Positions 2,896-51,092 of a stretch of DNA of 64,000 nucleotides are shown piece after piece. The position numbers and the translations under genes were made by a program. The notes below the pieces were generated by a model, which saw only the letters and a list, made by a program, of their open reading frames with translations, was not told the DNA's origin and ran no database searches. The stretch is from assembly GCA_919901555.1 (NCBI GenBank), contig CAKKPG010000055.1, positions 278 to 64,277 of the forward strand, written 5' to 3'. How positions within the stretch are numbered: position 1 is the first letter of the stretch; each line of letters begins with the position of its first letter. The stretch is from Nitrospiria bacterium. Its GTDB lineage: Bacteria; Nitrospirota; UBA9217.

Positions 2896-4287
2896 GTGAT
2901 TATGAACACTTACGTAAAGCACAAAGGGATCAAGAGCTTCTTCGGCGGCATCGGCATTCTGAGCCTGCTCCTCGGCCTTGGGGCGGCATTGTATGGCTGC
3001 GGCGGCGGGGGCGGAGGGGGCGGCGGAGGAGGCGTTGCTGCCGGCAGTCTGGATACGAGCTTTAACACCACCGGCATAGTGACCACGGCCATCGGCGGCT
3101 TTGGTGACGTTGCCAATGCCGTCGCCATCCAGTCGGACGGGAAAATCGTGGCAGCCGGGAGTGCCTCTAACAGCGGCAACTATGATTTCGCCCTGGTCCG
3201 GTACAAGACCGACGGCTCGCTGGATACAAGTTTTGGTGCAACCGGCAAGGTCACCACGCCTATCGGCAGCGGTTATGACTACGCCAACGCCGTCGCCATC
3301 CAGTCGGACGGGAAAATCGTGGCAGCCGGGAGTGCCTCTAACAGCAGCAACTATGATTTCGCCCTGGTCCGGTACGACACCGAGGGCTTGCTGGATACAA
3401 GCTTTAACACCACCGGCATAGTGATCATTGCCATCGGCAGCGGTTATGACTACGCCAACGCCGTCGTCATCCAGTCGGGCGGGAAGATCGTTGTAGCCGG
3501 GACTTCCTATAACGGCAACGATTATGACTTCACCTTGGCGCGGTACAACACCAACGGCTCGCTGGATACAAGCTTTGGCGCAAGTGTACTCTGCCCTATC
3601 CTCTCCAACTGCACTGGCATAGTGACCACTGACATCGGCGGCAGCAGCAATGACTCCGCCAAGTCCGTCGCCATCCAGCCGGACGGGAAGATCGTGGCGG
3701 TCGGGTATGCCTCTAACAGCACCGACACTGACTTCGCCCTCGTTCGGTACAATGCCGGAGGCTCGCTGGATACGAGCTTTAACATCACCGGCATAGTGAT
3801 CATTGCCATCGGCAGCGGTTATGACGCCGCCTGGTCCGTCGCCATCCAGCCGGACGGGAAGATCGTGGTGGCCGGGAGTGCCCGTATTAGCAGCAATGAT
3901 TTCGCCCTGGTCCGGTACAACGCCGACGGCTCGCTGGATACAAACTTTGGCGCCAACGGCATGGTCACCACGGCTATCAGCAGCGATAGTGACGCCGCCT
4001 ACGCCGTCGCCATCCAGCCGGACGACAACCAGCCGAACGGGAAGATCGTGGTAGCCGGGGTTGCCTCTAACAGCACCGGCCATGATTTCGCCCTGGCGCG
4101 GTACAACACCGACGGCACGCTGGATACAAGCTTTAACACCACCGGCATAGTGACCACTGCCATCGGCAGCAGTGATGACTATGCCAATGCCGTTGCCATC
4201 CAGCCGGACGGGAAAATCGTGGCAGTCGGGTATACCCGTAACGACGGCGGCGACGAAGACTTCGCCCTGGCGCGGTACTTGCCGTGA
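2896..4287 (+). CDS. Delta-60 repeat domain lipoprotein
   Basis: Lipobox LYGC followed by a poly-Gly linker. About 7-8 units of the SLDTSF(N/G)..G.V...IG...D.ANAVAIQ.DGKIV.AG......DFAL.RY motif (delta-60 repeat family). Confidence 0.9.
   Translation: MIMNTYVKHKGIKSFFGGIGILSLLLGLGAALYGCGGGGGGGGGGGVAAGSLDTSFNTTGIVTTAIGGFGDVANAVAIQSDGKIVAAGSASNSGNYDFALVRYKTDGSLDTSFGATGKVTTPIGSGYDYANAVAIQSDGKIVAAGSASNSSNYDFALVRYDTEGLLDTSFNTTGIVIIAIGSGYDYANAVVIQSGGKIVVAGTSYNGNDYDFTLARYNTNGSLDTSFGASVLCPILSNCTGIVTTDIGGSSNDSAKSVAIQPDGKIVAVGYASNSTDTDFALVRYNAGGSLDTSFNITGIVIIAIGSGYDAAWSVAIQPDGKIVVAGSARISSNDFALVRYNADGSLDTNFGANGMVTTAISSDSDAAYAVAIQPDDNQPNGKIVVAGVASNSTGHDFALARYNTDGTLDTSFNTTGIVTTAIGSSDDYANAVAIQPDGKIVAVGYTRNDGGDEDFALARYLP
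3046..4284 (+). repeat. Tandem in-frame coding repeats (~57-60 codons per unit) of the delta-60 gene
   Basis: Recurring DNA strings gacggctcgctggatacaagctt and gccatccag(t/c)cggacggga(a/g)atcgtggcagccggg. They also create the long antisense shadow ORF 2863..4437. Confidence 0.9.
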
Positions 4288-4541
4288 TGATCGTCTATGG
4301 TAGCTGCAACCGAGACTGCAAACCGCTGCGCCCTGCGCAGGCGGAACCGGGAGCTGCGGGAGCGCCTGAGGGGCGACGCAGCGGCGGCAGTCTCGGCGTT
4401 CTCCATCCGAATACGGATGTGATGTTGACTGCGACAAAGTCTGCGCACTGGTTCAATCCCGACAGGCCGGAATGGCCTGTCGGGGATCGGCATCGCCTGA
4501 AAACAGGCGATGACAATACGCATTAACAAGAGGTATTTCAC
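4288..4541 (+). repeat. Copy 2 of the ~254-bp intergenic module
   Basis: See 776..1029. The hairpin CATCGCCTG-AAAA-CAGGCGATG lies at 4491-4512. Confidence 0.85.
4422..4526 (+). CDS. Candidate 34-aa small ORF, copy 2 (MLTATKSAHWFNPDRPEWPVGDRHRLKTGDDNTH)
   Basis: Same frame and length as 910..1014. The upstream sequence is ACGGATGTG, so the SD is poor. Confidence 0.2.
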   Translation: MLTATKSAHWFNPDRPEWPVGDRHRLKTGDDNTH

Positions 4542-5465: not shown

Positions 5466-5520
5466 AGCGAACCACGTTTGGGCGGATGCGATGACAATAC
5501 ACATTAAAAGGAGAATTACC

Positions 5521-5998: not shown

Positions 5999-6154
5999 AT
6001 GAAAACAATCCAACAACTTGGAATGGCCTTGGCGGCGGCAGCGCTGCTGATCATGGCCGGCTGCGGCGGAGGCGAGGGTTCCTCGGAGGCGCCGGCCGAC
6101 ACGACCACCACCACTTCTTCGGTGGTCGTGACAACCGTTCTGACTACGCAGTAG
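5999..6154 (+). CDS. Small Thr/Ser-rich lipoprotein (51 aa)
   Basis: GAGGGG lies upstream of ATG 5999. Lipobox IMAGC, then GGGEGSSEAPADTTTTTSSVVVTTVLTTQ. Confidence 0.5.
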   Translation: MKTIQQLGMALAAAALLIMAGCGGGEGSSEAPADTTTTTSSVVVTTVLTTQ

Positions 6155-6294
6155 TCCGGGCGCCCGGGATGGGTTGCACCCATCCCGGGTGTACTCGTCT
6201 TCCAATGCGGCGCGCGTTTCGAACCAGAAACGCGCGGGCCTCGCGCGGCCTGTCTGAAGTGCTTCTTCCTGCGGAATATAAAAGGAGGTGTGCT

Positions 6295-6750
6295 ATGAAA
6301 CGGATACTTATGATAGTGCTTGCCGTAATTGCGGTAAGCGGAATCGGCGCGGCGCTGCTGCTCATCGGCAGTACGCCGGCATCGGCAGGACCGGGATATT
6401 CCGCCAGTGATGTAAAAGGGGAATATTTATTCACCGTCGCTTCGATCGGTTATGTGGGCAGTGTGCTCGATTATTGCGATCATGCGGGAACCATGTTCTT
6501 TGACGGCGTCGGCGCGGTAACGATAACCGAGACGCGGCGGTGCAGCGTCGGCGGTTTGATCGCGGAAACCGCCGTTCTCTCCTATACCGTGAACCCGGTG
6601 ACCGGCGAGGTTCTCCTTGAAGATCCGAGGGCCCCCGGCGATCCTACCCATGGCCAGATCGTGATGAAGGGCAGGAGCGTGCTTCTCGACGGGACCACGA
6701 GGACGAATCCCCATAGGCTGATCATGCACGGCGTGGCCATGCAGCGGTAG
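6295..6750 (+). CDS. Secreted hypothetical protein (~151 aa), distant paralog of 5521..5988
   Basis: AAAGGAGG at 6280-6287, then ATG 6295. Signal/TM segment MKRILMIVLAVIAVSGIGAALLLIG..ASA. Shares the ...G(G)R(T/S)(I/V)LL(Q/D)G... block with 5521..5988. Confidence 0.7.
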   Translation: MKRILMIVLAVIAVSGIGAALLLIGSTPASAGPGYSASDVKGEYLFTVASIGYVGSVLDYCDHAGTMFFDGVGAVTITETRRCSVGGLIAETAVLSYTVNPVTGEVLLEDPRAPGDPTHGQIVMKGRSVLLDGTTRTNPHRLIMHGVAMQR

Positions 6751-7035: not shown

Positions 7036-8598
7036 ATGACGACCCCTGACCAGATAAAACTCCTCGAAAGCCTCCATCCCCTCGAACACAAGCTCCTCCT
7101 GAGCTTCGAGCGCGGGGATACGCTCTCCGCCTCCGAGATCATGGGCATATCGGGCCTCGATGAGTCGCGGCTGGACATGGCCGCGGGCTGGCTCCAGACC
7201 AAAGGCATGCTCGCAGTGACGGGCGAGACGGTCACGACCTCCGTTGCGCTCACCGAAGCGGGCGCGGAATACCGTGAAAAGGGTACGCCCGAGATGCGGA
7301 TCATCGGGGCCCTGCGCGAGGGAAAGCAGTTCACGGTCAAGGACGTTATCCAGACGTGGGGTATGGACCCGTCGGAGGTCAGCTCCGCCACCGGATCGCT
7401 CAAGGCAAGCAACATCATTCGGATAGCCCAGGGCGGTATTCTCGAATTAAACCAGGCGACTGATACGGCCCCCTACGATTTGCTGAAGGAAGTTATCGAT
7501 GAAACAGGAACAGCATCCGTCGTTCTCTCGGGCTTTCCTGAAGAGAAGCAGGCCGTAATCCACGCCAACTTCCACAAGCGCGGCAAGGCAAAGGGCGTCT
7601 TCCGCATCACGGAAAAGAAAAACCGAACGTACGCCCTGACGGCGCAGGGGAAGGAGATCGTCCGTCTCGTTCTCGAGCGGGGCGGGGGAGAGGACGAAGT
7701 GTCGGTCCTCACGCCGGAGATGCTGAAGCAGGGCACGTGGAAGGACAAGAAGTTCCGCGCCTACAATATTTCGCTCAACCCGCCGCGGATCAGCATCGGA
7801 AAGAAGCACCCTTACCGGGAGTTCCTCGATTTCGTCAAGTACAAGTTCATCGGCATGGGGTTCGAAGAGATGCGCGGGCCGCTCGTGGAGAACGAGTTCT
7901 GGGACATGGACGCGCTGTTCATGCCGCAGTTCCATCCGGCCCGGAACATCCATGACGTGTATTTTGTGAAAGAGCCCGCCTCTGCCGGGAAGATCGAAGC
8001 GCCCTTTGGAAAACAGGCAGCGGCGACCCACCGGGACGGCTGGAAGACCGGCTCAACAGGCTGGCGATACAACTTCGACCTTGAACGGGCGAAGCGGCTT
8101 ATCCTCAGGAGCCAGGGCACGGCCGTGTCCGCCAGGACCCTTGCCTCGGGGCCCAAGGTCCCGGGGAAATACTTCTCCATCGCCCGCTGTTTCCGCTACG
8201 ATGCCGTGGACGCAACGCACGCCCCGGACTTTAACCAGGTCGAGGGGATCGTGCTGGGAGAGGACATCAATTTCAAGACCCTCCTGGGGCTGTTGAAGCT
8301 CTTCGGCCAAGAGGTCGCAAAGGCAAAGGAGTTTCAATTCAGGCCCGCCTACTTCCCCTTTACCGAGCCGTCGGTGGAACTCCATGTGAAGCACCCCGAG
8401 CTCGGCTGGATGGAACTGGGCGGGGCGGGCCTCTTCAGGCCCGAGGTCACCATCCCGCTGGGCGTTGACGTCCCGGTCATCGCCTGGGGCCTCGGCCTGG
8501 ACCGCATGGCCATGATCGCCATGGAGATCCGGGACATCAGGGATTTGTTTTCGAGGGATTTAGACTTTATCAGGACAAAGAAGATACACTTGGAATAA
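7036..8598 (+). CDS. pheS: Phenylalanine--tRNA ligase alpha subunit, long archaeal/eukaryal-type
   Basis: 520 aa with an N-terminal winged-helix-like extension. Class II core motifs are FMPQFHPARNIHDVYF, RSQGTAVSARTL and GGAGLFRPEV...GLGLDRMAM. Confidence 0.9.
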   Translation: MTTPDQIKLLESLHPLEHKLLLSFERGDTLSASEIMGISGLDESRLDMAAGWLQTKGMLAVTGETVTTSVALTEAGAEYREKGTPEMRIIGALREGKQFTVKDVIQTWGMDPSEVSSATGSLKASNIIRIAQGGILELNQATDTAPYDLLKEVIDETGTASVVLSGFPEEKQAVIHANFHKRGKAKGVFRITEKKNRTYALTAQGKEIVRLVLERGGGEDEVSVLTPEMLKQGTWKDKKFRAYNISLNPPRISIGKKHPYREFLDFVKYKFIGMGFEEMRGPLVENEFWDMDALFMPQFHPARNIHDVYFVKEPASAGKIEAPFGKQAAATHRDGWKTGSTGWRYNFDLERAKRLILRSQGTAVSARTLASGPKVPGKYFSIARCFRYDAVDATHAPDFNQVEGIVLGEDINFKTLLGLLKLFGQEVAKAKEFQFRPAYFPFTEPSVELHVKHPELGWMELGGAGLFRPEVTIPLGVDVPVIAWGLGLDRMAMIAMEIRDIRDLFSRDLDFIRTKKIHLE

Positions 8599-20213: not shown

Positions 20214-20782
20214 ACGTCGATAAAAGACCGGTCATCTTCATTATCCTTGCAACACTCTCGATCCTTGTGGGCACGCTGGCGACCACGTTCATCCCGCTCT
20301 TTGTGGGAACAACGACACCGTCCATAGCGAATGTGATTCCCTACAAGCCGCTTGAGCTGGAGGGAAGAGACATCTACATCCGCGAAGGATGCAACAACTG
20401 CCATACACAGACGGTGCGTCCGCTGCCGTTCGAGACCGCGCGGTACGGCAGTTACTCCATGCTTGAGGAATCCGCTATCGATCGGCCCCATCTCTGGGGA
20501 TCGAAGCGCACGGGACCGGATCTGGCGCACGTGGGCCGGAAGTACCCCGCAGTCTGGCACACCATGCACTTGAAAAACCCCCGGAGCATGTACCCGGACT
20601 CCAATATGCCCGCGTATCCGTGGCTCGCGGACAGAAATCTTGACACCCGTTATACCGAGAAGAAGATGAAGGTCCTGGGGTATCCTTATACTGCTGCTGA
20701 TATGAAGGCGCTGCAAGGTAAGACAGAGATGGACGCCCTCGTGGCGTATCTGCTCAGGCTGGGCAAGGAGCTGAGGCAATAG
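20210..20782 (+). CDS. ccoO: cbb3-type cytochrome c oxidase subunit II (monohaem)
   Basis: ATGA overlap with ccoN. N-terminal TM segment. CNNCH haem c site. DLAHVGRKYP. Confidence 0.9.
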   Translation: MNVDKRPVIFIILATLSILVGTLATTFIPLFVGTTTPSIANVIPYKPLELEGRDIYIREGCNNCHTQTVRPLPFETARYGSYSMLEESAIDRPHLWGSKRTGPDLAHVGRKYPAVWHTMHLKNPRSMYPDSNMPAYPWLADRNLDTRYTEKKMKVLGYPYTAADMKALQGKTEMDALVAYLLRLGKELRQ

Positions 20783-20783
20783 T

Positions 20784-20924
20784 ATGGCACTGAAACAATG
20801 GCTCTACTTGGGCTTCACCGCGCTTCTCGCCGTTGTTCTTGCAGGTATCATGGTGTATTATTTCAGAAGCAGGCGAAAGGAAAAGGTAGAATCGCCCAAG
20901 TACCGGATGATGGATGATGATTGA
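20784..20924 (+). CDS. ccoQ: cbb3 oxidase small subunit CcoQ/FixQ-like (46 aa, absent from the ORF track)
   Basis: MALKQWLYLGFTALLAVVLAGIMVYYFRSRRKEKVESPKYRMMDDD has a single TM segment and an acidic tail. It starts 2 nt after the ccoO stop. Confidence 0.6.
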   Translation: MALKQWLYLGFTALLAVVLAGIMVYYFRSRRKEKVESPKYRMMDDD

Positions 20925-20929
20925 ATATG

Positions 20930-20989
20930 GAGCGAGCCGACCATGTCGGCGTACATGACGGCAACGCGGTTGCCTTGGTCCAAAAATGG
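20930..20989 (+). repeat. 60-bp double-hairpin dispersed repeat, copy A (ccoQ-ccoP spacer)
   Basis: GAGCGAGCCGACCATGTCGGCGTACATGACGGCAACGCGGTTGCCTTGGTCCAAAAATGG. Hairpins are GCCGAC-cat-GTCGGC and GGCAAC-gcg-GTTGCC. Confidence 0.85.
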
Positions 20990-21012: not shown

Positions 21013-21498
21013 ATGGCTGAATTCGACGGCATACAAGAGCGTAAAGAGGGGAAGAAGAAAATTCCCCTCGGCATGGCGGTCCTGTTTATCGGTCTCGTTG
21101 TCTGCGCGCTGGTTTACCTGTACCTGTTTCTCCCGCAGACGACAGGATGGACACAGGCGGACCGTTACGAAAAACTGATCAAGACCCAAGAGGCCGCCTT
21201 GACGGAGCATGGAAAAGCAGACGTCCATGCTGAGTCGGAACATGAACAGATGGTGGCTGCGGAGCAGGGCAAAGAGGTTTATGCCGCCGAGTGTGCCGCG
21301 TGTCATGGAGAAAAACTTGAAGGCGTCGTCGGGCCCGCCCTGGGAGGACCGAAGTTCAAGTACGGTGCAGCGCTTGAGGACCATATCCGCGTTATAACAA
21401 AGGGCACGCAGAAGGGGATGCCGGGATTCGGGCAGCGGCTCGGAGCGGCAAAAATTCGCAACGTGGCATCCTACATCCACACCCGCCACAAGCACTAA
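21013..21498 (+). CDS. ccoP: cbb3 oxidase subunit III-like, short monohaem form
   Basis: FixP-type N-terminus (DGIQERKEGKKKIPLGMAVLF, one TM segment). One CAACH haem site plus KGMPGF. 161 aa. Confidence 0.7.
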   Translation: MAEFDGIQERKEGKKKIPLGMAVLFIGLVVCALVYLYLFLPQTTGWTQADRYEKLIKTQEAALTEHGKADVHAESEHEQMVAAEQGKEVYAAECAACHGEKLEGVVGPALGGPKFKYGAALEDHIRVITKGTQKGMPGFGQRLGAAKIRNVASYIHTRHKH

Positions 21499-21600: not shown

Positions 21601-22854
21601 ATGAAATTATTATCAACCTTCCGCGCAAAGCGCAGGCTCACGGCACGGATCCAGTCGGTTATTGTTCTCGGGTTGCCTTTTGTGCGAATAGACGGCGAGA
21701 GCGCCCTCCGGTTCGATGTCCCGTCGCTCAAACTGTATTTCTTCGGCTCCGTGATCTGGATCAGCGAGGCCTACTTCTTTCTCCTCGTCTCTCTTCTCTT
21801 TTTCATCGGGGTGATGCTCTTTACCATGCTCTATGGACGCATCTGGTGCGGGTGGGCCTGCCCCCAGACCGTTCTCTCCGATTTTTCCCGCAGGATCGCC
21901 GCCATGGCCCGGTGGCTGACCGGGCATCGGGCGCTCTCCATGGTTCTGACGCAGTTTTTTATTCTTGCCTTCTCCATCGTTGTTTCAGCCGGCCTGATCT
22001 GGTACTTCGTTTCGCCCTATGACATGGCAAAGGATATCTTCTCCCGGTCCCTCGGCCCGTGGACGCTCTGGTCATGGATATTCTTTGCCGCGCTTGCGTA
22101 TCTGAACCTCGCATTTGTTCGCCAGAAATTCTGTACCTCGGTATGCCCCTATGCGCGGTTCCAGAGCGCGTTTTTCGACCATAAGACGCTCACCATCGGC
22201 TTTGACGGCGACCGTTCGCATGAGTGCCGGGGATGCGAGGCCTGCGTTAAGGCCTGTCCAGCTGAGATCGATATCAGAAACGGCCTCCAGGTGGAGTGTA
22301 TCAACTGCGCCGAGTGCATTGACGCCTGCGCAGGGAGGATGAAACGCCTTCATAAGCGGGGGCTCATCGGGTATTTCTTCGGCCGCGTTGATCGGGATGT
22401 CAAGCAAACCGCTCGGCCGCGCGTTATCGGTCTGGCCGTCGCTTTTGCGGTCATCGCCGCGCTGTTCATCCATCAGATATACGTCAGGGTCCCCGTGGAC
22501 TTCCTGGTCATCCGCGACGAGAGCCGGCCTTACCATCAAACGGGTTTCAAAGGTGATATGCTCAATACGTACAGTCTCTTTGTGGAAAACAGGAGCCTTG
22601 AGCCGGAAGAGTATTTGCTGGGACTTTCCGGCGTGGAGGACGCGGAGCTGGTCATTCCCAGAAACCCTTTTACGCTTCCGCCTAATGCGATGGTGAAATT
22701 CACGATTTACGTATTCGCCCGAAGAAGCAGCCTCAGGGAACGCATCACCCGTCTGCAATTCACGCTGAAGAGCACCAGGTCTTCGGAAATACGGATCACG
22801 CGGGAGGCGCCGTTTTTGTATCCCGAGAGAACTGAAAAAGGGGTGGAGATCTGA
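21601..22854 (+). CDS. ccoG: cbb3 oxidase accessory 4Fe-4S protein CcoG/FixG
   Basis: CGWACPQT, CTSVCPY, CRGCEACVKACP and CINCAECIDAC, plus TM segments. Confidence 0.85.
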   Translation: MKLLSTFRAKRRLTARIQSVIVLGLPFVRIDGESALRFDVPSLKLYFFGSVIWISEAYFFLLVSLLFFIGVMLFTMLYGRIWCGWACPQTVLSDFSRRIAAMARWLTGHRALSMVLTQFFILAFSIVVSAGLIWYFVSPYDMAKDIFSRSLGPWTLWSWIFFAALAYLNLAFVRQKFCTSVCPYARFQSAFFDHKTLTIGFDGDRSHECRGCEACVKACPAEIDIRNGLQVECINCAECIDACAGRMKRLHKRGLIGYFFGRVDRDVKQTARPRVIGLAVAFAVIAALFIHQIYVRVPVDFLVIRDESRPYHQTGFKGDMLNTYSLFVENRSLEPEEYLLGLSGVEDAELVIPRNPFTLPPNAMVKFTIYVFARRSSLRERITRLQFTLKSTRSSEIRITREAPFLYPERTEKGVEI

Positions 22855-22857
22855 GCC

Positions 22858-25353
22858 ATGACTTCCCCGGCCGCCCGCCTGATTTGCGACCACTGCCTGT
22901 TGCCGGTATCCACGAGAGACGCGGTCTCTGATGATTCTCCGGGGGGACGCAAGGTCTTCTGCTGCCATGCCTGCCGGGCCATTTATCGGATGATCACCGA
23001 AGAAGGGTACGGCGACTTTTATAAGAGGCGCGACTGGAAGACCGTCGGGATCCCCGAAGCGCTGAGAAGGGCGGACCAACCGGAGCCCGGACCTCCGGCA
23101 GCGGAACGGGAAGCTCTCCTGCCGTTCATCCGCGGTAACGGTGATATCAAGGAAGCGGACCTCATGATCGACGGCATCCGCTGTGCCTCCTGCATCTGGC
23201 TGAACGAGAAAGTGCTGGAACGCACGAAGGGTGTTCTTTCCGCGCGGATCAATTTTGCCACCCATCGCGCTCTCATCAAATGGGACGGCGCCGCGATCAC
23301 CCTCCACGCGATCCTTGCCCGCATCCGTTCCATCGGCTATCTTGCCAGGCCCTATACTCCTGCCGCTCAGGAAGAGGCCCTCAAAAAACAGAATTACGAT
23401 CTTCTCATCCGCCTCGGCACGGCGTCATTCTTTTCCATGCAGCTCATGCTCCTGAGCTTCGGTCTGTATGCGGGCTACTTCCAGGGAATCGACCCTGTGG
23501 AAAAATACTGGCTGGAATTTTTTGCCCTGCTGATGTGCACGCCAGTTCTTTTTTATTCTGGATGGCCCTTTTTGAGAGGGGCCTACGGGGGACTGCGAAA
23601 CCGCGTTCTGAACATGGACGTGCTCATTTCCCTGGGCGCGCTTTCCGCCTATTTCCTGAGCATCCATCACATGCTTACCCGGGGCGAGGTCTATTTCGAC
23701 ACGTCGGCCATGATCATCACCCTGGTGCTTTTGGGGAGGTTCCTTGAACATTCAGCCAGGCGGCGCGCCTCGCAGGCAATAGCACGGCTTCTCGCCCTCC
23801 AGCCGCAGGATGCAAGGCTTGTCCGGGACAGTGACCGTGTGGTGGTCGCCGTGAGCAGCGTGAAGAGAGGCGACATGCTGGAAATACGGCCTGGCGAGAA
23901 GGTGGCGCTGGACGGAATTATCAAAGAGGGCGTCTCCGAGGTCGATGAGTCCCTGGTGACCGGCGAGTCGCGGCCCGTTGAAAAATCACCGGGTTCCGGA
24001 ATGATCGGCGGAACGATAAACGGCCTGGGCACGGTCATCATGGAAGTGACCAGAGTGGGGCAGGAGACGACACTTTCCCGGATCACGCGACTCGTGGAGA
24101 ACGCCCAGGCATCGACAGCGCCGATCCACAGGTTCGCGGACAGGGTATCCGCCTATTTCATCCCTTTTGTGATCGCTGCCGCAGGGATCACGTTCTGGCA
24201 CTGGCACCGTTATTTCTACGCGGACCAGTCCCTGCTCGTTGCCGTGTCGGTGCTCGTCATCGCCTGCCCCTGCGCCCTGGGCCTCGCCACGCCCGTGGCG
24301 GTCCTTGCAGGCACGGGTCGCGCCGCGCGGAGCGGCATCCTCATAAAAGGCGGAGATGTGCTGGAGCGCATGCATAAGGTGAATACCGTGGTCATGGACA
24401 AGACCGGCACGCTCACGACAGGGAAGATGCAGGTCGTTGAAGTGCGGAATTTGGAGCAAGCCGACCGTGTCGGCGTCGCAGACGGCAACGCGGTTGCCTC
24501 GATCCAGAATAGAAGCGAAAAAATCATACTATACGCTGCATCGGCTGAGCAGGGCTCGGAGCATCTCCTGGGGGCTGCGATAGTGCGCTACGCAAGAGAT
24601 AAGGGGATATCGCCGCTGAGCTCCGGAGGCTTCCAGGCAGTGCCGGGGCAGGGTGTGCGGGCCATGGTTGAAGGCAAGCAGGTGCTCGTAGGGAAGCAAA
24701 GTCTTCTTGAACAAGAAGACATTGTGGTATATCCTGAGATTGTCGCTGAAGCGGAGGTCCTGGAGCAAAGCGGAAGAACGGTGGTGTTTGTCTCGCAGGA
24801 GAAGGTACTCCTCGGCATGATCGCTCTCATGGATTCGGCAAAGCCGGATGCCGCCTTTGCCGTGGAGCGGTTGAAGCGAATGGGTATGGAAGTCGTTATG
24901 ATAACCGGAGACAACCGGACGACCGCTGATGTTATCGCAAAGAGGACGGGAATTGAGAAGGTCCTTTCCGGCGTCCTGCCTTCAGGGAAATCAGAAGAAG
25001 TAACTAAGCTCAGGACAGAAGGCAGGGTCGTTGCCATGGTGGGGGATGGGATCAATGACGCGCCTGCCCTCGCGGCGGCCGATGTCGGCGTCGCCATGTC
25101 CGCCGGTTCCGATATCGCCATAGAATCCGCGGGCATGGTGCTCATGCGGTCCGATTTGACCGGTGTCGTAGAGGCGATTGAACTGTCGCGAAAGACCTTT
25201 CGGGTGATCAAGCAGAACCTGTTCTGGGCATTTTTTTACAACGTGGCGGCGATTCCGCTGGCAATGGCGGGTCTGTTGCATCCCATCGTTGCCGCTGGTG
25301 CTATGGCGTTAAGTTCCGTGACCGTGGTGACGAATTCACTTCGTCTAAGATAG
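22858..25353 (+). CDS. ccoI: Copper-translocating P1B-type ATPase CcoI/FixI
   Basis: N-terminal CDHC...CCHAC, TGES, CPC (IACPCALG), DKTGTLT and GDGINDAP. Confidence 0.9.
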   Translation: MTSPAARLICDHCLLPVSTRDAVSDDSPGGRKVFCCHACRAIYRMITEEGYGDFYKRRDWKTVGIPEALRRADQPEPGPPAAEREALLPFIRGNGDIKEADLMIDGIRCASCIWLNEKVLERTKGVLSARINFATHRALIKWDGAAITLHAILARIRSIGYLARPYTPAAQEEALKKQNYDLLIRLGTASFFSMQLMLLSFGLYAGYFQGIDPVEKYWLEFFALLMCTPVLFYSGWPFLRGAYGGLRNRVLNMDVLISLGALSAYFLSIHHMLTRGEVYFDTSAMIITLVLLGRFLEHSARRRASQAIARLLALQPQDARLVRDSDRVVVAVSSVKRGDMLEIRPGEKVALDGIIKEGVSEVDESLVTGESRPVEKSPGSGMIGGTINGLGTVIMEVTRVGQETTLSRITRLVENAQASTAPIHRFADRVSAYFIPFVIAAAGITFWHWHRYFYADQSLLVAVSVLVIACPCALGLATPVAVLAGTGRAARSGILIKGGDVLERMHKVNTVVMDKTGTLTTGKMQVVEVRNLEQADRVGVADGNAVASIQNRSEKIILYAASAEQGSEHLLGAAIVRYARDKGISPLSSGGFQAVPGQGVRAMVEGKQVLVGKQSLLEQEDIVVYPEIVAEAEVLEQSGRTVVFVSQEKVLLGMIALMDSAKPDAAFAVERLKRMGMEVVMITGDNRTTADVIAKRTGIEKVLSGVLPSGKSEEVTKLRTEGRVVAMVGDGINDAPALAAADVGVAMSAGSDIAIESAGMVLMRSDLTGVVEAIELSRKTFRVIKQNLFWAFFYNVAAIPLAMAGLLHPIVAAGAMALSSVTVVTNSLRLR
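24454..24513 (+). repeat. 60-bp double-hairpin repeat, copy B, in-frame inside ccoI
   Basis: GAGCAAGCCGACCGTGTCGGCGTCGCAGACGGCAACGCGGTTGCCTCGATCCAGAATAGA. It starts on a codon boundary and encodes EQADRVGVADGNAVASIQNR. Confidence 0.8.
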
Positions 25354-28536: not shown

Positions 28537-28670
28537 GTTGGGAAACGGCGTCGTCTTTCGGCAACGAGGCCCGTATCGTCAATCGGTAACGTGGAGCGGC
28601 TCAACACCGACGACGTTAGACGCAGCCGAAAACGGCGTCGTGACCCTTTTACCATTTACGAGGTTTAACC

Positions 28671-34328: not shown

Positions 34329-34387
34329 AATTTTTGGACCAAGGCAACGGCGTTGCCGTGGATTACGCCGACACGGTCGGCTCGCTC
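34328..34387 (-). repeat. 60-bp double-hairpin repeat, copy C (plsY / vanZ-like spacer, reverse orientation)
   Basis: The reverse complement reads GAGCGAGCCGACCGTGTCGGCGTAATCCACGGCAACGCCGTTGCCTTGGTCCAAAAATTA. Confidence 0.85.
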
Positions 34388-34394
34388 TACATCG

Positions 34395-41212: not shown

Positions 41213-41234
41213 CGGAAAATCCCCCTCACCCCAG

Positions 41235-41325
41235 CCCTCTCCCTCGGAGGGGAGAGGGAGTACGTCGTAGCCCCTCCAATGATAAGCCCCCTCTCCCTTT
41301 TTCCCTCTCCCACTGGGGGAGAGGG
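41235..41325. repeat. Two copies of a C/G-rich hairpin (CCCTCTCCC-loop-GGGAGAGGG)
   Basis: Hairpin 1 spans 41235-41258 and hairpin 2 spans 41303-41325. Flanking GGGGTGAGGGG / CCCCTCACCCC strings are present. Confidence 0.7.
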
Positions 41326-41498
41326 GTAGGGGTGAGGGGAGTTGTATTGGGTTGGGGAGGGTGATGGTCAGGTAGCCGAATAAATATCAATTTTCATTCC
41401 CCTTTGTGAGCGCAACTCATGGACGATTCATAGAAGGAGCATAGAGCATGGCGCAGAACGTGGAGACGTATGGCTATATGCCCGATGCCCTTATGCCC

Positions 41499-42431: not shown

Positions 42432-42577
42432 GTTTATTCCTCTTTCTGGGACGACCGTGACGGTTACGGTCACGACGCCCGTTGCGTCTTACGGCTACGT
42501 CGATCGTTTAAAGACGCTACCGTTTACCGAACTACGATACGGGCATCGTTACCGTAAGACGACTGCCGATGCGTTTG

Positions 42578-51003: not shown

Positions 51004-51092
51004 GCCGCTGTGGCGGAATTGGCAGACGCAAGGGACTTAAAATCCCTCGGGGGGCGACTCCCGTACCGGTTCAATTCCGGTCAGCGGCACCA
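51004..51092 (+). tRNA. tRNA-Leu (anticodon UAA), class II long variable arm, CCA encoded
   Basis: Acceptor stem GCCGCTG/CAGCGGC. Anticodon arm AGGGA-CTTAAAA-TCCCT. T arm ACCGG-TTCAATT-CCGGT. 3' ACCA. Confidence 0.95.

Follow-up and report, generated by a model that had tools for sequence, protein, structure and literature searches.

A repeat of the REPIN type lying in-frame in the ccoI ATPase gene of a Nitrospiria bacterium

The ccoI gene and its repeat copies

The stretch analysed here, 64,000 nucleotides of contig CAKKPG010000055.1 from a Nitrospiria bacterium (hereafter the window), encodes a ccoI/fixI-type heavy-metal (Cu) P1B ATPase of 831 aa (22858..25353, plus strand), and a 59-nt palindromic element lies in-frame inside this coding sequence (CDS). 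The element belongs to a dispersed family of REPINs, inverted doublets of related repetitive extragenic palindromic (REP) units, and its copy in ccoI is very probably a tolerated passenger in a loop of an enzyme whose gene is under purifying selection. The open reading frame (ORF) matches TIGR01525 with 629 bits and the copper-ATPase model TIGR01511 with 592 bits, the best stretch of the latter match stopping at residue 534, which is where the insert lies. The catalytic set of motifs is complete, with CASC at 109, CPC at 470, DKTGT at 514-518, TGDN at 683 and GDGIND at 729. Together with the N-terminal PF12156 domain and linkage to ccoNOQP, ccoG and ccoS, the DKTGT, CPC, TGDN and GDGxND motifs and the CxxC of the heavy-metal-associated (HMA) domain place the protein among the CcoI/FixI P1B ATPases.

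The in-gene copy, copy B, occupies 24450..24508 of the plus strand (about codons 532-551). Its outer stem pairs 24450-24459 with 24499-24508 and encloses a first hairpin, GCCGAC-CGT-GTCGGC (24460-24474), a spacer (24475-24483) and a second hairpin, GGCAAC-GCG-GTTGCC (24484-24498). A preliminary description of this DNA had delimited a 60-base string at 24454-24513 on the plus strand and placed its start on a codon boundary, as is the case: (24454-22858)/3 = 532, the number of codons from the ORF start. The string is translated EQADRVGVADGNAVASIQNR and lies, as had also been described, after the phosphorylation motif and before the nucleotide-binding block, between DKTGT and AASAEQGSEH. Those limits remain valid as a codon-based delimitation. 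The conserved ends of the family, TnTGGA...TCCAnA (112-118 unique copies), set the element itself at 24450-24508, and its 59 nt are not a multiple of three. The tryptic peptides predicted for the insert region are NLEQADR and VGVADGNAVASIQNR. The RNA fold of the 86-nt neighbourhood of copy B has an energy of -30 kcal/mol (z = -2.4).

That the repeat is dispersed, as first proposed, is borne out by another two copies, which lie between genes of the window (74-81% and 76-87% identity over 63-74 nt); a profile search finds all three with E = 1e-18 to 1e-19. Copy A (20926..20984, plus strand) begins 2 nt past the ccoQ stop codon (TGA 20922-20924) and ends 28 nt before the start, at 21013, of a mono-haem ccoP-like cytochrome c gene. 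Copy C (34333..34391, minus strand) nearly fills the 66 nt that separate the plsY stop (34395) from the start of a vanZ-like gene (34328).

The gene downstream of copy A (21013..21498, plus strand) gives a partial match to TIGR00782 (E = 6e-15), and Pfam Cytochrome_CBB3 matches its orthologues. It is followed by ccoG of the cbb3 oxidase maturation cluster (21601..22854, plus strand; TIGR02745, 290 bits), which directly precedes ccoI. Orthologous loci share the synteny ccoNOQP-ccoG-ccoI-ccoS. In loci L011 and L012, ccoI stands directly after a gene for an Rrf2-family regulator, in a locus without ccoNOQP and ccoG, and is still under purifying selection. The window ATPase is 98% identical to that of locus L014, yet the ccoQ region (window 20700-20930) is nearer to that of locus L008 than to that of L014, a discordance that suggests mosaic recombination among related strains.

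A REPIN family accompanied by RAYT genes

The repeat was sampled with two public scans by core pattern, followed by a profile search of the window and 131 fetched loci (~1 Mb). These 132 sequences hold at least 205 profile matches, at least 159 of them full length, in hosts of 39-70% GC; the named records are mostly metagenome-assembled genomes of Nitrospirota. The pattern used to scan contigs demanded a 6-nt gap from the conserved GT after hairpin 1 to the AC before hairpin 2, and the window copies have 5, so this strict pattern undercounts and misses the window's own class. The metagenome scan corrected this with a variable gap, and all copy counts are lower bounds. The density is 3 copies per 64 kb in the window; by the strict pattern, a 476-kb contig has at least ~1 per 150 kb. 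Copies are dispersed and mainly intergenic, with ~13 of the 159 lying in verified CDSs of 5 gene families.

In the layout of the element, an outer stem encloses the hairpin GCCGAC-nnn-GTCGGC, a variable spacer and the hairpin GGCAAC-nnn-GTTGCC; from GTCGGC of the first inner hairpin to GGCAAC of the second, the distance is 6-11 nt. The left half matches the reverse complement of the right half at 20 of 27 positions, which makes the element an inverted doublet of related REP units, and thus a REPIN. In the outer stem, 8 of 10 positions are paired in at least 96% of copies. Covariation in this stem was considered as a sign of structure-driven selection and found unconvincing, since a G.G mismatch prevails at position 7 over occasional C-G and G-C. 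As the search pattern had fixed the inner stems, these are uninformative on conservation outside the ATPase orthologues. The consensus is open in five of its six reading frames, making read-through easy. The strings that follow copies A and B, ATGGAGCG and AGCGAA respectively, resemble partial left ends; a flank logo of 118 anchored copies shows no conservation there, and they were not taken as parts of the element.

The family is associated with genes for the REP-associated tyrosine transposase (RAYT). In locus L007, a 180-codon gene (6036-6575) between a full and a half element matches NCBIfam NF047646 (REP-associated tyrosine transposase) with 82.3 bits (cut-off 80) and Pfam Y1_Tnp with 33.7 bits (cut-off 23). 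Nine more RAYT homologues, 54-68% identical, are intact. All of these loci had been fetched by the repeat pattern alone, and all 10 of the RAYT genes have full or half elements on both sides within ~100 nt; half copies also stand alone beside RAYT genes. Such flanking of a RAYT gene by complete and half elements, termed a REPtron, is the defining arrangement of REP/RAYT systems (PMC6006769; PMC3116915). The L007 gene itself contains an in-frame TAG at 6159-6161 and may be a pseudogene, unlike its nine homologues.

REPINs are non-autonomous, and their mobilisation, in the form of single-stranded DNA hairpins, is attributed to the RAYT, a transposase of the HUH/Y1 type. A RAYT probably mobilised the copies of the present genome as well, and one of them became fixed in ccoI, in the loop that leads from the first beta-strand of the nucleotide-binding (N) domain to its first helix.

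Several intergenic copies end 10-30 nt before a start codon in the sense of the gene (window copies A and C; loci L003 and L004), and the sequence is strongly conserved over GC-diverse hosts. Both features would suit a cis-regulatory RNA of the riboswitch-like 5' untranslated region (5'-UTR) kind or a transcription-factor operator, with the ATPase copy as a chance likeness or an internal regulatory site. Such an origin is very unlikely, since the genes that follow the copies are unrelated to one another (cytochrome c, vanZ, thiG, purS, gatB and kdsC), copies also occur at gene 3' ends, within CDSs, in opposite orientation and in clusters, and RAYT genes are flanked by copies throughout. Furthermore, the element matches no Rfam family at the gathering threshold. 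The diversity of gene contexts, the copies beside RAYT genes and the missing Rfam match led to the rejection of a riboswitch or 5'-UTR motif in particular. The sole gathering-level Rfam match in the window is a tRNA gene at 51004-51089.

The insertion site among relatives

Among 120 homologues of the window ATPase, the linker from DKTGT to SEH is strongly variable. In homologues at ~50% identity it is ~17 residues shorter, and the solved HMA4 shows a 16-residue alignment gap precisely at the insert. The insert recurs unchanged in the 98% relative P0001, and the 90% relatives P0002 and P0003 have AECGIRNHNSKLQTPNSE in its place. At the DNA level, the P0002 segment (locus L008) is built from GTGCGGA heptamers, three in tandem, and a subsequent inverted array of AACTCCG-like heptamers. 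The REPIN is absent both from this ATPase and from 22 kb of flanking DNA at L008; every REPIN-bearing ATPase locus with enough flanking DNA has additional copies nearby. The "20 added codons" of the preliminary description are hence approximate, amounting to ~16-17 against insert-free homologues and structures, and to a mere five against P0002, the nearest relative without a REPIN. The latter figure is small because P0002 carries another repeat-derived segment there, and because in the window the right heptamer arm is deleted and the left arm is a remnant.

Filled and empty sites can be compared directly. What separates L009, L011 and L012 from the sister sequence L134 (P0010) is a REPIN set into the left heptamer arm, a clean insertion in which no duplication is seen. 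The window carries its REPIN at the same point, next to a degenerate left-arm remnant (…AATCATA). At the copy A site, a REPIN is present in the window and L009, and a heptamer array in L008 and in L014, the locus with the 98%-identical ATPase. Mobility is apparent from both comparisons: copy A is present in the window and missing from L014, at an ATPase synonymous divergence (dS) of 0.07, and the ATPase copy is missing from L008 and L134 and present in their sister sequences. Three of the four empty sites hold a heptamer array, and replacement by recombination may have taken place at these. In a neighbour-joining tree built with the loop masked, insert types switch between sisters, and the REPIN-bearing ATPases are divided over three separate positions. 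Full and half REPINs also form clusters upstream of Rrf2/cco, in the spacer that separates fdhD from a conserved gene of ~250 aa, in L009 (3694-3890), L011 (8291-8512) and L012 (2-126).

It is hardly credible that ccoI is a decaying pseudogene or that the 20-residue segment is ancestral in the protein, either of which would have overturned the preliminary description. The ORF is intact over 831 codons with all P1B motifs, and the ratio of nonsynonymous to synonymous divergence (dN/dS) between REPIN-bearing orthologues is 0.14-0.16 at dS values up to 0.75 (0.16 for the window against L014; 0.15-0.16 among L009, L011 and L012, at dS 0.5-0.75). The gene is, as judged from these comparisons, under purifying selection and functional-looking. 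As for ancestry, the same DNA recurs in intergenic copies, and the ortholog alignment that had been proposed places no such segment in the 90%-identical P0002/L008 and shows variable linkers elsewhere.

An AlphaFold2 model (72-sequence alignment; mean predicted local distance difference test score, pLDDT, 83; predicted template modelling score 0.73), the structure prediction likewise proposed earlier, has a strand at 520-531, a short turn and a helix at 546-566. The blocks 531-540 and 541-550, which contain most of the insert (533-552), have pLDDT values of 61 and 53 against 91 for their neighbours, and insert residues 546-552 are modelled as an N-terminal extension of the helix. The insert is thus predicted to form part of a low-confidence surface loop of the nucleotide-binding domain. 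The preliminary description had put it in the linker from the phosphorylation (P) domain to the N-domain; the region holds, and the site is more exactly what we take to be the N-domain loop that joins the first strand to the first helix, by reference to the ATP-binding domain of A. fulgidus CopA. Read through, the copy would give ~17-20 residues of flexible surface loop.

At least four unrelated repeat classes have entered this loop across the clade. In many CcoI orthologues it holds heptamer arrays translated AECG(V/I/M)RN...KLKTQN (e.g., L008 11576-11662; L134), and others have GQG-type segments that resemble translated heptamers. In L132 (11579-11731), a GC-tract palindrome encodes ...PHPGPLP...GERIEVRG; similar copies occur in the unrelated loci L065, L043 and L054, and the window has a palindrome of this class at 41222-41339 (CCCCTCACCCCAGCCCTCTCCC ... 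GGGAGAGGGGTAGGGGTGAGGGG). In L133, a C6/G6 hairpin joins the heptamer arm at the position of the REPIN. The loop is best regarded as permissive; it has been colonised again and again by unrelated hairpin-forming repeats, and the ATPase tolerates its REPIN. Heptamer arrays, (GTGCGGA)n with inverted (AACTCCG)n-like ones, also fill the ccoQ-ccoP spacer of L014 (about 8100-8150), where the window has a REPIN. A general association of REPINs with period-7 arrays was examined and dismissed: 4 of 142 copies lie within 70 nt of an array, compared with 0.9% of random positions, and 2 of the 4 are ATPase copies. Within the window, heptamer arrays are no more frequent than chance.

Nearly all members of the clade at 60-98% identity have a loop insert of 20-50 residues and homologues at 50% have none, which could mean that a longer, flexible loop between the first strand and first helix became advantageous in the CcoI clade, the repeats serving as raw material. 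The modelled helix extension (546-552) would also fit such a protein-level exaptation. It is nonetheless improbable, given that the insert sequences are mutually unrelated (REPIN, heptamer arrays, GQG-type, PHP/PLP-type and C6/G6 hairpin) and turn over between sister sequences, that P0056, P0060, P0072, P0075 and P0077 have short loops of 16-22 residues, and that model confidence is low within the insert. On the reading of the insert as a tolerated passenger, it presumably has no function at the protein level.

Reading in-frame is not peculiar to ccoI. A search for further copies in CDSs, which the preliminary description had also put forward, located the same REPIN in-frame in at least four other gene families among the fetched loci, checked with Pfam: a CoA-enzyme activase (L005, inside DUF2229), a CusA/AcrB-type resistance-nodulation-division (RND) pump (L021, L069 and L115; ACR_tran is matched over 5-1046), a cytochrome bd-like subunit I (L077) and an RHS-repeat protein (L097, opposite orientation). 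In the RND pump and the activase, one Pfam domain match runs across the insert. In L006, the REPIN forms the 3' end of a citramalate-synthase-like ORF.

The window contains further repeats. Tandem 171-nt coding repeats (3005-4275, and 654-766; 62-86% identity; motif ...DFALVRYNTDGSLDTSF...) make up a gene for a repeat-domain protein, another unit copy lying ~2.4 kb upstream. A direct duplicate of ~230 nt (792-1021 and 4303-4533; 92-96% identity; partial copy at 5488-5513) borders the region of this gene. In addition, a 67-nt inverted pair (28550-28616 and 42497-42563; 75% complementarity) possibly represents another dispersed repeat family.

Synonymous-site conservation of the in-gene copy and comparison with known systems

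Several observations weigh against a neutral REPIN passenger moved by a RAYT. A tblastn search detected no RAYT gene in the 64-kb window, or in the ATPase loci, and the association is known from other genomes only. The tetramers GTAG, CTAC, CGTC and GACG are all absent from the consensus; the GTAG/CGTC tag marks two large REP superfamilies and not REPs generally (Di Nocera et al., 2013, PMC3733652). Neither a target-site duplication nor a conserved flanking target appears in the flank logo of the 118 anchored copies. Synonymous sites are better conserved within the in-gene copy than in the remainder of ccoI, which is not predicted for a passenger that is ancient and purely neutral. At four-fold sites, the window is identical to L009, L011 and L012 in 7/7 to 8/8 cases, compared with 0.39-0.45 gene-wide. 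A codon-matched control retains the excess, with 11-13 of 13-14 codons identical where 6.2-6.6 are expected. Among L009, L011 and L012 themselves, whose REPIN copies are orthologous as judged from a common lineage-specific spacer, third positions are identical at 14-17 of 14-17 sites against 0.67-0.74 gene-wide (P = 0.001-0.015), and 14-16 of 14-16 codons are identical where a codon-matched control expects 9.6-11.4.

This excess would be accounted for if the in-gene copy were kept by selection at the nucleotide level, as a binding site for the RAYT or another protein, through mRNA stability or processing, or by making translation pause between the P- and N-domains. The 24 nt of the two inner stems do not differ among the ATPase copies, even at third codon positions, and the fold of the copy is stable, which favours such selection alongside the four-fold-site excess, its persistence under codon matching and the third-position identity of the orthologous copies. 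Even so, selection of this kind is unlikely. The sites are few (7-17 per pair), and recent independent insertions or short gene conversion would mimic the signal between distant lineages; the three separate tree positions of the REPIN-bearing ATPases go against it as well. Moreover, the near relatives L008 and L134 do without the element, which elsewhere stands in unrelated contexts and has no Rfam match. The synonymous-site excess, seen in small samples, could reflect constraint on the hairpins, reinsertion or gene conversion. A further reading takes the loop as a sequence-directed landing pad, in which a coding heptanucleotide array (CGGARTG)n draws different hairpin elements (REPIN, C6/G6 and GC-tract palindromes) to one and the same nucleotide position, and the REPIN is subsequently selected for its DNA or RNA hairpins, for instance by way of RAYT binding or a pause in translation between domains; we regard it as a minor possibility.

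The ccoI insert gives a clean comparative case of a REPIN read as protein inside a conserved P-type ATPase, with filled and empty sites, purifying selection and a structural model. It extends the range of REPIN-RAYT systems to Nitrospirota-like lineages of groundwater and sediment. The at least four unrelated repeat classes in one enzyme loop form a natural experiment that bears on how mobile hairpins make protein length variation. For annotation, the string ME(R/Q)ADRVGV...GNAVA(L/S)VQ in predicted proteins, or at the start of small ORFs, is the translation of a repeat and not a protein motif.

With the CopA/CcoI P1B Cu ATPases, of which 3RFU, 3J09, 8Q75 and 2B8E are solved, the window ATPase shares the full motif set, the domain order and a cbb3 maturation gene cluster. 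It differs in having ~16 extra residues between strand 1 and helix 1 of the N-domain, in a loop that is hypervariable and repeat-derived in its clade.

The preliminary description had likened the insertion to the Rickettsia palindromic elements (RPEs), which, following Ogata et al. in 2000, are said to be 100-150 bp long, restricted to Rickettsia and without a known transposase. The likeness is one of behaviour, in that a palindromic repeat lies in-frame in functional genes, where surface loops are the expected sites. With its 59 nt, Nitrospirota-like hosts and RAYT partner, the present element is analogous and not an RPE; that it has no apparent sequence relationship to RPEs, as had been stated, stands, and it is a REPIN rather than an orphan repeat. 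In-frame colonisation is not confined to Rickettsia, as intragenic REPs encoding 20-30 residues of known proteins were reported from several species in 2013 (PMC3733652) and intragenic small repeats have been reviewed more generally (Delihas, 2011, PMC3184786).

Intragenic miniature inverted-repeat transposable elements (MITEs) of bacteria, such as ERIC/IRU, RUP, Correia and Nezha, are likewise small, non-autonomous, open-frame repeats fused to or inside CDSs (PMC3184786). MITEs have terminal inverted repeats derived from DDE-type insertion sequences (IS) and target-site duplications. The 118 anchored copies of the present family show no duplication, conserved flank or IS-like ends, nor does the comparison of filled and empty sites, and the element is not a MITE.

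The closest likeness is to the REP/REPIN-RAYT systems (Nunvar, 2010; Bertels and Rainey, 2011, PMC3116915; Ton-Hoang, 2012), with which the element shares inverted doublets of short GC-rich palindromic units, dispersed and mostly intergenic copies, and the REPtron arrangement. It also shares with intragenic REPs (Di Nocera et al., 2013, PMC3733652) read-through copies encoding about 20 residues, so that the case described here adds to in-frame intragenic REPs already known in several species. In contrast to the best-studied REPINs, which are gammaproteobacterial, the host is Nitrospirota-like. The units lack the GTAG or CGTC tag and each has its own small hairpin, allowing a T-shaped three-way fold or one long hairpin, while the density of copies appears modest and the sequence is unusually conserved across hosts of 39-70% GC. 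What is particular here is the host lineage, the tagless units, the reuse of one enzyme loop by several repeat classes and the synonymous-site signal.

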